Source: a virus. Taken from it: 64,000 nt of DNA. Below are positions 30,551-50,076 of this stretch, in pieces. The notes beneath the pieces were generated by a model that worked only from the letters and a program-made list of their open reading frames with translations, made no database searches and was not told the origin of the DNA. Numbering within the stretch: the first letter of the stretch is position 1; every line of letters begins with the position of its first letter. Made by a program: the position numbers and the translations under genes. The stretch is taken from positions 37,154 through 101,153 of IMG/VR virus record IMGVR_UViG_3300049005_000030; one strand, written 5' to 3'.

Positions 30551-30907
30551 TTACTCCCTCTCGTCATCCCCCGGCGCTTGCCGGGGAGTCTCGGTGACGG
30601 CGGCCCACATGCGGGCCACCGCGTCATGGATGTCCGCCGTGGCGGCGTAGGGGAAGGTGCCGACGTAGCCGGCGTGCAGCCCGGCCACGCCCAACCGGTC
30701 GAGGGTGCCGCGCTGCGGGTCCAGGTGCGCGGCCTCCACGGTGTCGCCCCGGAACGCCGAGGTGCCGGTGACCTGGTTGACCTCGTAGGTGCCCACCACC
30801 AGCCATGCCACCACGGGCGTGAGCCGATAGGACTGATCCCCGGCCAGCCAGACGTGCACCAGCCCCGGGCCGGCCGGGATCACCTGGTCGATCTGGTCGT
30901 GCGTCAC
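30551..30907 (-). CDS. Hypothetical protein
   Basis: GTGA-coupled to helicase. Confidence 0.45.
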   Translation of the reverse strand: MTHDQIDQVIPAGPGLVHVWLAGDQSYRLTPVVAWLVVGTYEVNQVTGTSAFRGDTVEAAHLDPQRGTLDRLGVAGLHAGYVGTFPYAATADIHDAVARMWAAVTETPRQAPGDDERE

Positions 30908-45279: not shown

Positions 45280-45309
45280 AGACTAGCCGGTGGGTAGTCG
45301 GTTAGTCAA
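45280..45309 (-). promoter_or_regulatory. Palindrome promoter copy 11
   Basis: TTGACT-18-TAGTCT. Confidence 0.8.
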
Positions 45310-45395: not shown

Positions 45396-46076
45396 TCACT
45401 CCAAGCCCAGCGGGGACTCAAGGAAAGCCGGGCCGCGCCCGCGCTTGGTGACCTTCTCGCCACCCAGGCGGACACCCAGCGCCGCGTCGGCGGCCGCCGC
45501 GCTCTCGTTGCCGCCGTCGATCAACGACAGCGGGACACGCCACCACACGCCCCAGCGCTGCTTGCCGCCACGATCGGCGACACCGGTCAAGCCCCGCACC
45601 CGCAGCGCACCCAGACGTTCCAGCACCGTCTGCACCGCGCTCGCGGTCACGATGCCCTCTTCGGCCGGATGAGCACGGGCGTGGAAGTCGGCCACGCTCT
45701 GCGTGCGGATGTGCAGCGCGTCAGCGCCTGACCGCGTGCCGGCCAGCAGCGGGGCGTCCAGGGCCAGCGCCTCGTCGTAGTCCTCCACGGCCGGCACCTC
45801 CCGCAGGTACTCGCGCAGCAGGGGCTGGATACGCGCGGTCAGGGCGGCCGACACCGACAGCCGGTCGGACCGCATCCGGCGGCCGAAGTCGCGGACGTCG
45901 TCCGGGTGGAACAGCAGCTTGGGGCGCGGCATGGCCTCCGAGGTGCGCACCACCAGGCAGGCCAGGTCGCCGGAGCGCACCAGGTCGTTCACGGCGGCGG
46001 GGTCGATGCCCAACGTGGCGGACACGTCGGCGGCGGTGAACGCGAAGCCCAGCGCCGCCCAGTCGATCGTCGTCAT
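45396..46076 (-). CDS. HTH (excisionase/MerR-like) DNA-binding protein
   Basis: FTAADVSATLGIDPAAVNDLVRSGDL...LLFHPDDVRDF pattern; flanked by repeat-rich DNA. Confidence 0.65.
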   Translation of the reverse strand: MTTIDWAALGFAFTAADVSATLGIDPAAVNDLVRSGDLACLVVRTSEAMPRPKLLFHPDDVRDFGRRMRSDRLSVSAALTARIQPLLREYLREVPAVEDYDEALALDAPLLAGTRSGADALHIRTQSVADFHARAHPAEEGIVTASAVQTVLERLGALRVRGLTGVADRGGKQRWGVWWRVPLSLIDGGNESAAAADAALGVRLGGEKVTKRGRGPAFLESPLGLE

Positions 46077-46079
46077 GGC

Positions 46080-47100
46080 TTCAGAACAGCATGGACTGAC
46101 TAGCATGTCAAGCCATGCTAGCTAGCTGGCTAGTTATACGTTTCGTGACCGTTCCAAGTGGACATCGATTTGCGTACGGGAACCGCAGTGGCCACAACAG
46201 GTCACGGCTAGAGGCCAGAGCTAGGATGCTAGTTCGTTGTAGCGCCGCTGATCAGATGGGGTGGATCGGGGCCTGGACGGCAGGTGGACACAAGCGATGT
46301 CCATGGACGGTCCACATTGGTGTGGACCATTCGTGATCTTGCTCAATCGCCCGCAGACCATCCCAACAGGACTCGACCACCCCCGGGAGCCACCCCGGCC
46401 GGGCCGCATCGCAGGTGGAGGCGGTGGGGGTCGGCAACGGCCGCCTAGGCGGGCTGTGAGGCACGGTCCAGGCGGGGGGATGGGTAGCCGGCGAACACGG
46501 CCACACGACATCTCGCAAGCATTCGCCCCCTTATAAGAAAAGTGGCCTGGACAGAACGAGCTCAAAAAGGGGGTTCCAGGGCTAGATTAAAATGCTAGTG
46601 CTAGTTACTGAATGCTAGTCAAGACCTATGACCTGGGAAAACAAGACTAGCATCCACAACTTGCGTAAAGAGTCCGGCATGCACCACTTGCATAGCACTC
46701 ATGCATTGATACCTAGCTCTGGATCGCTGACCCTCTGTCCAGGCCCATGACGGAAGATACCCAGGTCAAGGCATGGACAGGTGGACACATGCGGACTAGC
46801 ACTAGTGTCCTAGCACTCTCCTACCTGCGGGTATGCATCACAGCATGGACACATAGCACTGCCAAACATGGCCATTGGAGGGTTCCAGATACCCCCGGGG
46901 GGTATATGTGATTGCTAGGCTGACGATGCAAACTGGCACGCCTGGCCTAGCACACGGGCATGCTAGCCAGGTGGCGCTTAGTCACCCTACGTATCGTTAC
47001 CATTTCCGTTACCGTTCTGAGACCAAAGTATGGTACCTATTAGGGGAATACTTTCATTCAGACGGGTTCTGTAGCGTTATCTTTACTCACAGTGACTAGG
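46080..47100. repeat. Non-coding strand-switch region with dispersed TGCTAG and TGGAC repeats; candidate origin or terminus
   Basis: Lower GC, no credible ORF, about 20 CTAG and 10 TGGAC counted by eye. Confidence 0.6.
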
Positions 47101-47136: not shown

Positions 47137-47394
47137 ATGACCCCACCTGTTCAGAGCGCCTCCGTACGCCCGCCGCGTCCGTGGAGCCGCCCCTCCTCCG
47201 CCGTGCTCGCCAGCGTGCTGATCGTCGTGGCGACCGCCATCTGGCTGCCCGACCACTTCGCCCCCATCGCCGTCGGCTGCATCCTGTTCGACCTGCTGAT
47301 GCTGGCCGCGTTCGTCGCCCAGCTGTCCCGGTGGGCGCTGGAGGTGCAGAAGCTGATCGAGCAGACGCAGTCCGATGCGTCGCCCCGCCGCTGA
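47137..47394 (+). CDS. Two-TM membrane protein (leaderless)
   Basis: ATG 6 nt after TATTCT. Confidence 0.55.
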   Translation: MTPPVQSASVRPPRPWSRPSSAVLASVLIVVATAIWLPDHFAPIAVGCILFDLLMLAAFVAQLSRWALEVQKLIEQTQSDASPRR

Positions 47395-48013
47395 CTTCAG
47401 CGCCCGCCTGGTCCAGGTGGTGGCCGGCGCGGCCGTGTCGGGTGTCGGGCTGGCGTGGATGATCCGGGCGAAGCTGGGGGCGCAGCCGTGGGATGTGCTG
47501 CACCTGGCGGTGGCGTCGCTGGCGCACGTGACGGTGGGCACGGTGATCGTCGCGATGTCGGTGCTGGTGCTGCTGGCGTGGTGGCCGTTGCGGCTGCGGC
47601 CGGGCTGGGGCACGTTGGCCATGACGTTCATCCCGGGGCTGGCGTGCGACGGCGCCCTGTTGGTCACCCCGACGTTCGACAGCAACCTGCCGATGCGTGC
47701 CGCGCTGTTGGTGTGTGGCATCGGCGTGTTCGCCGTCGGCACTGCCGCCGTGATCCGCGCTGGCCTTGGCCCCGGCGCCCGCGACGGCCTGATGGTCGGT
47801 GCGTGCCGCCGCTTCGGCTGGTCGGTGTTCGCCGTGCGCACCGGGATCGAGGTGACCGTGCTGGCGCTGGGGCTCGCGCTGGCGGGCTTCTGGCCGGCTG
47901 TGCACGCGGGCACCGCCGGTGTCGGCACGGTGGTGATCGCGCTCAGCCTGGGCCCGCTGCTGGGTCGTCTGCTCCCCAAACGCGCCATTGACAGCCGCCG
48001 GGAGACCGGCTAG
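47375..48013 (+). CDS. YczE/YitT-family membrane protein
   Basis: LG..PWDVLH, RPG.GT, GLG.G.RDGLM, T.IEV.V, GVGT motifs. Confidence 0.75.
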   Translation: MRRPAADFSARLVQVVAGAAVSGVGLAWMIRAKLGAQPWDVLHLAVASLAHVTVGTVIVAMSVLVLLAWWPLRLRPGWGTLAMTFIPGLACDGALLVTPTFDSNLPMRAALLVCGIGVFAVGTAAVIRAGLGPGARDGLMVGACRRFGWSVFAVRTGIEVTVLALGLALAGFWPAVHAGTAGVGTVVIALSLGPLLGRLLPKRAIDSRRETG

Positions 48014-48016
48014 CGT
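47988..48016 (+). promoter_or_regulatory. Palindrome promoter copy 13 (drives ncRNA unit)
   Basis: TTGACA-17-TAGCGT. Confidence 0.8.
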
Positions 48017-48389
48017 ACCTCTTGTGCGGTTGGCGAGGACACAGCACGAACGTCTGTAGGACGCCCGCCCGGGAACACAGGCCAGGCCCGGACCGCACAC
48101 CTCCGCCGCCCAGTCGACCATCCTGGGCGGCGGGGACCACCGCTCGGCAAGCCGCGCGTCCCACACCGCAAGGGTGGGCTCAGCCGGCAGGCCGACAGAT
48201 CTGTTCAAGTCAGGCCGGTGGACGAGGGGACGCAGTGGGTTCGCACTGACGTGGGCAACCCGGCCAGAAGGTCGGGCCGGTCCACCGACGCGGACAACAC
48301 GGCCCCAAGACCGGCGGTGGGTCACGCTGCCGCCGGTCGCGACGCAGGGGTTCAGTTGGACCCGGTCGGCCCTGACCGCCTAGACCGGG

Positions 48390-48484
48390 GGTGCTGTAGC
48401 TCAGATGGGTCAGAGCACGGACGATGCCCGGAGCAACGGAGCGGGCGGGATCCGAGGTCGCCGGTTCGAATCCGGCCAGCACCA
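48390..48484 (+). tRNA. tRNA-like RNA with anticodon loop replaced by an extra hairpin
   Basis: Acceptor GGTGCTG/CAGCACC, TA-GCTC D arm, AGGTC variable loop, GCCGG-TTCGAAT-CCGGC T arm; 20 extra nt in anticodon arm. Confidence 0.8.
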
Positions 48485-48594
48485 CGGCAACCGACGTCCA
48501 GACCGTGACGCTTCACGGAGCTGGGGAGCGATCGGATGCAAGCCGCAGGGAAGCCAGTCAGGCAGGGCGTTGCCACTGGCCGAACGAGCGGCAC

Positions 48595-48664
48595 GGCTTG
48601 AAGGTGGGATGGGGCCACCGTCCCCTTAACCGGGGAAGACGTCGGTTCGAATCCGGCCAAGCCA
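48595..48664 (+). tRNA. Atypical tRNA-like RNA (6 bp acceptor stem, 6 nt anticodon loop)
   Basis: GGCTTG/CAAGCC, D stem GGTG/CACC, TCCCC-TTAACC-GGGGA, GTCGG-TTCGAAT-CCGGC. Confidence 0.7.
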
Positions 48665-49080
48665 CTGGACCACGACGGCGCCGCACGGGTTGACGACCCA
48701 GTGGCGTATACGTTCCAAGGTTCGGCGTCCGTCGTCGCCGAGCAAGTGCTTAAGCCGGCCCGTATCCCAGGCGGTCGGTGGACGCGCGAGGCGTCTGGCT
48801 GAGCAGTCCCCCCACCTGGGACGGGGGGCAGACTCTGCGGTCGAACCGGGCCAGGCGCACGACGCCGCTGGACTCGACCCCGAGCACCACAGGGCGAGAG
48901 AGGCTGTCACCGGCACGGGCAAAGGTCCAGCTGCCCCCGCGCCACCACCGACCTGGGAGGAACACTCGACATGGACACGATTGCGGCACCCCCGGCGTCG
49001 GCCGGCCAGCTGTGCCCCGGTGGGTGCGGCCACACGCTGCCGTCATGCGGGTGTCCCCCGGCGAAGTAGCGGACCAGGAC

Positions 49081-49113
49081 AAGGCCGGCGCCCTACTCGG
49101 GTCGCCGGCCTTT
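49081..49113 (+). terminator. Terminator of ncRNA unit
   Basis: AAGGCCGGCG...CGCCGGCCTT followed by TCT. Confidence 0.65.
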
Positions 49114-49164
49114 CTGCTGCGTGTCGAACCGGACCGGCCGCCCGGCCCGTCGCATACTGGCCGC

Positions 49165-50076
49165 GTGCTGGGACTTGACTACTCCGGCGGCCGGCCACCG
49201 GCGCAGGCCATCCGCTCGGCCGGATACGGCTTCGCTATGCGCTACCTCGACAACGGCCTGGGTGGCAGTCGAGCCAACCTGACCGGGCCGGAGTGCTCGA
49301 CTCTGCGCGCGGCCGGCATCGACGTGGCCTTGGTGTGGGAGCGCAAGCTGCTGGTCGGCCCGGACCGGGCGACTCAGGGCGCGCCCGCTGGCACTGCCGA
49401 CGCGCGGGCGGCGCAGGCGCAGGCCGTCGATGTCGGCTTGCCGGACAACCCGATCTATTTCTGTGTGGACTTCGACATCCCCGACTATGCGCCCGGCAAC
49501 GCCGATCCCCGGGCCAAGCTGGGGCCGGTCGGGGATTATCTCGCCGCCGCCCGGGACGTTGTCGGTCAGGCTCGCATGGGCGTTTACGGCGGTTACTGGG
49601 CGGTGTCGCGGGCCCTGGACGCAGGACTGGCCGAGTGGGCATGGCAGACGTTGGCCTGGTCGGGCGGCAAGGTCGACTCGCGGATCAACCTGCTCCAGCG
49701 GTTGGGCATCGTCACCGTGGGCGGCATTGATTGCGACGTCAACGAGGCTCGAACGGCCGAGTTCGGGCAGCACCCCGTGGAGGGAATCATGACCAAGGAC
49801 GAGATCGAGGCCATTCTCAAGTACCCGATCCCGCGCGAGAACGTCCCGGAACTGCCGGGGGCGACGTCGCTGTGGGCGGTGGCGGCTTGGTTCGACTCCG
49901 CCGTGAGCAGTGTCCGGGGCACCACCACGTCGGCGGTGGATGCGTTGCGCGCGGAGATGGAGGCGAAGCTGGCCGCGCTGGCGGTGCCGGAGATCGACTA
50001 CGACCGGCTGGGCGCGTCGATCGCGAAGAATCTTCACGCCACGATCGAGGTCGAGGGCGCGCAGCCGGCGCAGTAG
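49165..50076 (+). CDS. Endolysin, DUF1906/Rv2525c-like glycoside hydrolase
   Basis: GLDYS...F..RYL, VWE, PIYF.VDFD, GVYGG, WQTLAWSGG, CDVN. Confidence 0.85.
   Translation: MLGLDYSGGRPPAQAIRSAGYGFAMRYLDNGLGGSRANLTGPECSTLRAAGIDVALVWERKLLVGPDRATQGAPAGTADARAAQAQAVDVGLPDNPIYFCVDFDIPDYAPGNADPRAKLGPVGDYLAAARDVVGQARMGVYGGYWAVSRALDAGLAEWAWQTLAWSGGKVDSRINLLQRLGIVTVGGIDCDVNEARTAEFGQHPVEGIMTKDEIEAILKYPIPRENVPELPGATSLWAVAAWFDSAVSSVRGTTTSAVDALRAEMEAKLAALAVPEIDYDRLGASIAKNLHATIEVEGAQPAQ

Follow-up and report, generated by a model that had tools for sequence, protein, structure and literature searches.

A phage RNA with a whole tRNA body and a conserved hairpin in place of the anticodon loop, probably a non-decoding carrier

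Element A, a 95-nt element of a virus genome, has a complete tRNA body and is non-decoding, with a 29-nt hairpin insert in the place of the anticodon loop and no usable anticodon. We consider it probable (roughly 0.6) that element A is a functional phage RNA in which a tRNA-shaped carrier would present a conserved hairpin to a partner, a reading that draws on the full tRNA body, the missing anticodon, the conserved and irregular hairpin, the existence of sister elements, a promoter and the islands of conservation in the surrounding tract. The whole stretch of DNA that was analysed, here called the window, is 64,000 nucleotides long and corresponds to bases 37154-101153 of IMG/VR record IMGVR_UViG_3300049005_000030, a virus record of 101,153 bp with direct terminal repeats that is estimated to be complete and has a GC content of 69%.

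Judged by its portal, major head, tape-measure, helicase and large-terminase genes, the phage is of the siphovirus type. Its nearest isolates by capsid are Gordonia and Brevibacterium phages, with a capsid identity of only 44-52%, and the five nearest of these contain no match to the tRNA model. As homologs of the lysin and of the portal occur in Kutzneria, Nocardia and Actinophytocola records, the host is likely a member of the Pseudonocardiaceae or of a neighbouring family. In the whole phage the tRNA model matches in two places only, element A and a second element, B, and neither ARAGORN nor RF00005 finds a canonical tRNA anywhere in the 101 kb. The parts of element A and the leader that abuts it are the following.

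48390-48484, plus strand: element A, a 95-nt tRNA-shaped RNA (RF00005, 53.6 bits; covariance model R1, 120 bits; consensus fold)
48390-96 with 48477-83, plus strand: acceptor stem
48399-48416, plus strand: D arm
48418-48421 with 48451-48454, plus strand: anticodon stem, CGGA with TCCG
48422-48450, plus strand: 29-nt insert that replaces the anticodon loop (sequence, fold)
48455-59, plus strand: variable loop, 5 nt
48460-76, plus strand: T arm
48484, plus strand: discriminator A
48359-48389, plus strand: conserved 5' leader abutting element A (25 of 31 positions identical to the leader of the ortholog in phage G063)

RF00005, for which the cut-off is 29 bits, matches exactly 48390-48484 on the plus strand over model positions 1-71, with 53.6 bits and E = 1.1e-8 for the 64-kb window, a score that is far above chance. 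With this match, and with the elbow nucleotides U8, A14, D-loop GG, G15-C48 and T loop TTCGAAT all present, we could confirm the initial annotation in its description of the acceptor, D, variable and T arms as canonical; its count of 29 nt instead of the expected 9 between CGGA and TCCG also holds, the coordinates and motifs being as claimed and the RF00005 alignment itself reporting 29 nt where the model has 9. Both the centroid fold and the two-sequence consensus fold give a cloverleaf with an extended anticodon arm. The insert is laid out as CGAT / GCCCG / 11-nt loop / CGGGC / GGGA, that is an internal loop (CGAT/GGGA), an inner helix (GCCCG/CGGGC) and a terminal loop of 11 nt; a U-G pair can close the inner helix, in which case the arm consists of 4 bp, a 3x3 internal loop, 6 bp and the 11-nt loop. 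The insert occurs once in the window, so that a repeated or mobile hairpin was rejected. The ends of element A lie in the acceptor stem and its topology is not permuted, CCA is not encoded at its 3' end, and the leader (48359-48389) holds a 7-bp inverted repeat that ends at the predicted RNase P site. The default ARAGORN run does not report the element.

The features that together make a decoding arm, a 5-bp stem and a 7-nt loop in which U33 and a purine at 37 flank a three-base anticodon, are not combined in element A as encoded. Every single excision was then considered over a range of stem registers, and none yields a 5-bp stem, 7-nt loop, U33 and R37; the same test gave no canonical loop for the G063 ortholog, for its sister elements G063_3 and G063_4 or for element B, and only formal, non-canonical candidates for sister G063_1. 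As a control, the test recovers a clean tRNA-Lys(UUU) from the unrelated phage element G023a and can therefore find a hidden loop where one is present. Since no excision restores a usable anticodon loop, element A is neither a decoding nor a spliceable tRNA.

The initial annotation had left the choice between a non-decoding tRNA scaffold displaying a loop and a short enzyme-spliced intron; the second has to be abandoned, as no excision of any length restores a canonical loop in element A or in its ortholog. An intron-containing tRNA that would be spliced to a decoder is accordingly a highly improbable account, even though the intron mode of ARAGORN makes a call of tRNA-Pro(CGG) with a 22-nt intron and the record G023 contains a tRNA-Lys(UUU) with an 11-nt insertion at 37/38, which indicates that short tRNA insertions occur in phages. 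The ARAGORN call is a forced one, possible only with a stem of 4 bp and G33, and the phage lacks a gene for RtcB ligase. The further statement, that the insert falls far short of the size of a group I intron, was borne out, as it has 29 nt and no intron family of Rfam matches at E <= 10 in 47500-49500.

By the established rules of tRNA identity, anticodon-independent identity sets can also be judged from the sequence: G3-U70, a long variable arm and G-1 are all absent from element A, which thus has no known anticodon-independent identity set. The ARAGORN tmRNA search of the phage found no tmRNA, and the tRNA-like domain of tmRNA was ruled out, as it has G3-U70, no D stem and a linked tag frame, whereas element A has U3-A70 and a full D arm.

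A Y RNA of the YrlA type, which would tether a host Ro/Rsr protein to a nuclease, is extremely improbable. YrlA mimics tRNA and is found in phages and actinobacteria, and the YrlA of M. smegmatis is cut by RNase P (PMC4201824); YrlA and other Y RNAs (RF02553; PMC4201824) are, like element A, non-decoding and have tRNA-like D and T arms and an acceptor-like stem. However, both termini of the YrlA molecule are placed in the Ro-binding stem and a loop caps its acceptor-like stem, in a permuted arrangement (PMC4201824), whereas element A has the normal tRNA topology, and a search of 47500-49500 with the YrlA model found nothing at E <= 10. In addition, YrlA genes adjoin a Ro60/Rsr gene, while no TROVE domain was found anywhere in the 101-kb phage by a search to which control genomes respond.

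Element A is housed in a non-coding tract of about 1.1 kb (about 48014-49165), in which the following other features were recognised.

47988-48016, plus strand: predicted promoter, TTGACA, 17 nt, TAGCGT (copy of the extended motif)
48594-48665, plus strand: element B, a second odd tRNA-like RNA (RF00005, 30.3 bits; ARAGORN tRNA-???)
48791-48859, plus strand: degenerate tRNA-like remnant (alignment to the G063 ortholog of element A)
48853-48950, plus strand: conserved folded RNA block of about 95 nt, the 3' block (G063 alignment; consensus fold)
48971-49069, plus strand: ORF of 32 codons for a Cys-rich micro-protein, led by a Shine-Dalgarno sequence (conservation in G063)
49083-49119, plus strand: terminator-like GC-rich hairpin of 8 to 11 bp, then TTTCTGCTG (read from the sequence)

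Third-position GC points to plus-strand genes at 47137-47394 and 47375-48013 and gives no coding signal from about 48014 to 48780. Aptamers of the c-di-GMP-I class in the tract were rejected, as Rfam yields no such match there at E <= 10. The predicted promoter overlaps the stop codon of the upstream gene for a 212-aa membrane protein, with transcription predicted to start near 48023 and element A lying about 370 nt downstream of the promoter. The extended motif to which it belongs, TTGAC-N-AGCCG ... CCGGCTA-NN-CT, has 23 copies in the 101-kb genome, where chance would give 0.6, and every copy is correctly oriented ahead of a non-structural gene. Copies in the window are found for example at 47988, 51236 and 51536 on the plus strand and at 45309, 39625 and 35144 on the minus strand, and the same motif is present in the kin phages G057 and G059. 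The spacer that separates the hexamers at -35 and -10 has an inverted repeat, AGCCGG / CCGGCT, suggestive of an operator that forms part of each early or middle promoter. A gene at 45396-46106 (minus strand), which adjoins the strand switch upstream of the RNA module, encodes a 236-aa protein with a weak match to an AbiEi-type antitoxin HTH (E = 2e-4).

At its other end the tract appears to be closed, before the lysin gene, by the terminator-like hairpin and short T run at 49083-49119, which a stricter terminator scan does not call. From these promoter and terminator signals we infer that expression of the tract is well backed. The long ORF that starts at 48778 begins with a low-complexity translation, its lysin domain begins only near residue 130 and a lysin homolog of 84% identity is 303 aa long; the Rv2525c-like lysin therefore starts at GTG 49165, and 48778-49164 is a false N-terminal extension over non-coding RNA. 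This part of the genome thus falls into an annotation gap, as standard tRNA finders skip element A and ORF callers run the false lysin N-terminus over the tract.

Two further tRNA-like features lie between element A and the lysin gene. Element B shares its T arm with element A; its acceptor stem has 6 bp and its anticodon loop 6 nt, and ARAGORN calls it tRNA-??? with a two-base anticodon. It sits in a lineage-specific stretch and has no BLAST match, thus no ortholog, in G063. The remnant at 48791-48859 is undetected by RF00005 at E <= 10, and its 3' part can be aligned with the G063 ortholog of element A over the T arm and the 3' acceptor strand.

The phage G063 (103,348 bp), the portal of which is 48% identical to that of the present phage in protein and 66% in DNA, carries at 30720-30811 an ortholog of element A that is 84% identical. 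Comparison of the insert in relatives, as suggested in the initial annotation, revealed no normal 7-nt loop, and the G063 ortholog keeps the insert. The 18 nt of the insert core (internal loop and helix) are identical at 18 of 18 positions, including the 8 unpaired internal-loop bases (CGAT/GGGA), and no difference is found either in the D stem (8/8), the T stem (10/10) or the variable loop (5/5). Differences are placed in the acceptor stem with the discriminator (5/15), the D loop (4/10), position 26 (1/1), the terminal loop (3/11, that is 8/11 identical), the anticodon stem (1/8) and the T loop (1/7), so that 2 of 58 core positions differ as compared with 13 of 37 peripheral ones (Fisher p = 5.7e-5; element A versus the G063 ortholog). 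The consensus fold of the two sequences has 25 pairs, none of them broken (0/25): U3-A70 becomes C3-G70 in G063, a compensatory change, and C27-G43 becomes U27-G43, which is wobble-compatible; the terminal pair G1-C72 is replaced by C-A. With only two orthologs a single compensatory pair is available and the covariation evidence is thin.

Identity of the insert core at 18 of 18 positions has a probability of 5.6e-4 under the portal DNA rate (66% identity) and of 0.02 under the 81% identity of the leader; set against the rest of the element alone, 0 of 18 differing is not significant (p = 0.066). The case for constraint on the whole core of element A is strong, while for constraint on the insert in particular the sequences are suggestive; part of the high identity may come from horizontal exchange of the module between the two phages. 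The covariance model R1, built from the two orthologs, scores 120 bits for element A and 110 bits for the G063 ortholog, every other match in 35 phage records being at or below 52 bits, and the insert-core pattern matches only G063 in IMG/VR.

This pattern of substitution bears on the possibility that element A is a decaying, functionless tRNA pseudogene, created for example by an insertion into the anticodon loop of a former tRNA, which we regard as quite improbable. Such an origin would agree with the lack of canonical tRNA in the phage, with the lack of the element in most kin phages and with the degenerate remnant nearby (48791-48859). Against it, both insert and body are kept in a phage with portal DNA only 66% identical, the substitutions avoid the core, the changes in stems preserve pairing and the tract has a dedicated promoter.

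Beyond element A, the tract can be aligned to G063 only in islands, which are element A with its 31-nt leader, the block of about 95 nt and part of the small ORF. The 3' block is 84% identical to G063 over 111 nt and folds as a long hairpin of 26 pairs, with 0 of 26 broken and two compensatory double changes; its G063 counterpart lies at L385:5631-5727 (minus strand). In G063 this block directly abuts the ortholog of element A, while here it follows the degenerate remnant 48791-48859. The micro-ORF product is 69% identical to that of G063 (E = 4e-12), where the ORF is found at L385:5052-5147 (minus strand), downstream of the tRNA-like array, and the micro-protein has no match in Pfam, the atlas or isolated phages. 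As the genes flanking the module differ between the two phages while the 3' RNA block and the micro-ORF are retained, the RNA module, on this comparison, moves as a unit.

The array of G063 consists of four tRNA-like elements in a row on one strand, the ortholog of element A and three more, and in all four the acceptor, D and T arms are intact and the anticodon stem runs on into a hairpin. They share U8, A9, the D-loop GG and the T-loop motif GGTTCGA-N-TCC, and three of them (G063_2, G063_3 and G063_4) have in common the D-arm motif GTAGCTCAG ... GAGC; one has nearly the acceptor stem of element A. Each has a different long hairpin in place of the anticodon loop. Of the two readings offered in the initial annotation, these comparisons support the first, a tRNA scaffold that does not decode and presents a loop: the insert is kept in the ortholog, sister elements present other hairpins and a promoter is predicted upstream.

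The position of the elements also raises the possibility that the tRNA shapes serve as processing punctuation, that is as RNase P and RNase Z signals that would release and stabilise the 3' block and the mRNA of the micro-ORF. The direct fusion of the ortholog of element A to the 3' block in G063 and the presence of tRNA-like elements ahead of the micro-ORF in both phages are consistent with such a role, as is the need of RNase P for a 7-bp acceptor stem and a T arm (PMC4201824). A parallel exists in mascRNA / MALAT1 (RF01684), where a tRNA-like fold in a longer transcript places an RNase P / RNase Z signal beside a functional RNA, but mascRNA is eukaryotic and lacks a full D arm, whereas element A keeps every arm and a conserved insert. 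Since acceptor and T arms suffice for cleavage, punctuation would give no reason for the D arm, variable loop and, above all, insert core to be conserved, and we therefore consider it rather unlikely.

Using the portal protein, we defined a clade of phages of roughly 100 kb, and alignment of members of this portal clade retrieved 53 IMG/VR loci. When 22 full records were scanned with the tRNA model, only G063 showed a cluster of over-long matches on one strand. Of the eight near-complete genomes in the portal clade, two have elements like A and six lack them, which makes the element an accessory feature in this clade. A JGI contig carries a portal 88% identical to that of the present phage; Logan/ENA assemblies are the only source of the lysin's closest relatives (84% and 65% identical) and of most of the portal clade. 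As single queries, neither the lysin nor the 212-aa protein found close relatives in IMG/VR, and 160 loci of lysin relatives (IMG/VR and JGI metagenomes) have no similarity to the tract; by these comparisons the lysin is a mosaic module that does not track the RNA. The exact T-arm/acceptor string and the exact D-arm string of element A had 0 matches each in IMG/VR, and among isolated phages no DNA match to the tract or to the 3' block was found.

A GTDB-wide scan with the acceptor and D stems of element A returned tRNA-Phe(GAA) of Cytophagales and a few genes resembling tRNA-Ile(UAU), one of them in Streptomyces, with no insert-bearing copy and no clear parent isotype. Streptomyces sp. LUP47B contains at L314:1371-1606 a tight tandem of tRNA-Gly, tRNA-Asp and tRNA-Ala, with a common unusual D loop and a T arm identical to that of element A, which may be a mobile-element tRNA array; the tRNA-Ile(UAU) elsewhere in this genome has the acceptor stem of element A. 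The kin phage G059 has a normal-looking tRNA-Glu(CUC) at L379:1501-1572 and, about 185 nt after it, a 60-nt mini tRNA-like element (L379:1757-1816) with a weak mascRNA match (27.7 bits).

Over-long anticodon arms are a theme that recurs in unrelated actinophage records. In the actinophage-type loci L180, L187 (G019), L186 (G045), L182 and L188 (G002), tRNA bodies have a helical anticodon region of 15-42 nt, and the over-long bodies of G002 form a tandem pair. The tRNA-Lys(UUU) of G023 (L179:1501-1580, minus strand) has an intact CUUUUA...G loop, its 11-nt insertion is placed exactly at 37/38 and pairs with the anticodon, and at a distance of about 340 nt there is a reduced tRNA-like element; the insertion has the appearance of a short tRNA intron, here in a bacterial phage. 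G002, G019, G023 and G045 were rejected as homologs of element A, being unrelated by portal and neighbourhood.

The recurrence of long-anticodon-arm tRNA bodies in unrelated actinophage records, together with the several different non-decoding tRNA bodies found in arrays and the strict retention of the tRNA body and elbow nucleotides, would also suit an anti-defence or anti-toxin decoy. According to this explanation, the tRNA body would be the active part and soak up a tRNA-attacking host enzyme, for instance an anticodon nuclease or an acceptor-end modifier, and the hairpin would merely remove the cleavable, decoding loop. Phage tRNAs are indeed known to counter tRNA-targeting defences (PMC10264068, PMC11464382, PMC11555353), and these resemble element A in being tRNA-shaped and in having an anticodon region unlike that of the host, and they have a role in the conflict with it; however, they decode with a 7-nt loop and replace cleaved host tRNAs, whereas element A cannot decode, and no anticodon-less decoy is described in these three papers. 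Conservation of the 8 unpaired internal-loop bases would not be needed in a mere plug, and no tRNA-targeting system or host is known for the phage. We consider the decoy unlikely, if worth keeping in view, and pure decoy and pure punctuation both explain the conserved insert less well than the scaffold reading.

Among known RNAs, element A would, by analogy, work most like the engineered tRNA scaffold, and non-coding RNAs that mimic tRNA, such as YrlA, are the nearest to it in kind. The stable RNAs species 1 and 2 of phage T4 (rnaC and rnaD) are presumably also among the RNAs closest in kind; these are small stable RNAs that are encoded and processed with the phage tRNA genes, and they come from a different phage group and host than element A. 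The engineered scaffold of Ponchon and Dardel keeps, as element A does, the acceptor, D and T arms and has a continuous hairpin as its anticodon arm (PMC3753655). Its hairpin carries a foreign RNA and it was designed for processing and protection by the bacterial tRNA machinery; bacteria do process and protect a tRNA in which the anticodon stem-loop is replaced by a hairpin insert (PMC3753655). The engineered scaffold is man-made, whereas element A is natural and phage-encoded, is kept in two phages, has arrays with different inserts for company, and its processing is only predicted.

Taking element A as a non-decoding carrier, its life could run as follows. Transcription would start from the promoter at 47988, within the tract of about 1.1 kb. 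Host RNase P and 3' processing enzymes would excise element A by way of its intact acceptor, D and T arms, host enzymes being needed for 3' processing because the phage encodes no CCA-adding enzyme. The excised RNA of about 95 nt would accumulate with tRNA-like stability, and its payload, the long anticodon arm with the conserved internal loop and GC helix, would specifically bind a protein or RNA partner. A candidate partner is a host tRNA-binding factor, which might be titrated or redirected; the co-conserved micro-protein is an alternative candidate. Antisense action on the phage's own genome was ruled against, as antisense targets of the terminal loop in the phage genome do not rise above chance level.

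A broader and more tentative proposal, to which we would give clearly less than even odds, is that the tRNA body has become a modular display scaffold of phages, with arrays that carry different hairpin effectors, are matured and stabilised by the host tRNA machinery and are exchanged as modules. Aptamers that target defence or translation factors of the host could be one example of such effectors, which might act together with the Cys-rich micro-protein. In the open-access literature we found no description of anticodon-less tRNA scaffolds in phages.

Phage tRNA genes are usually explained by codon supply or by the replacement of tRNAs destroyed by host defences, and neither account fits an RNA that has a whole tRNA body, does not decode and has a hairpin for an anticodon. 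If the scaffold reading is true, phages would long ago have arrived at the trick that biotechnologists use for stable RNA expression in bacteria, and the conserved hairpins would represent a natural set of small RNA effectors.
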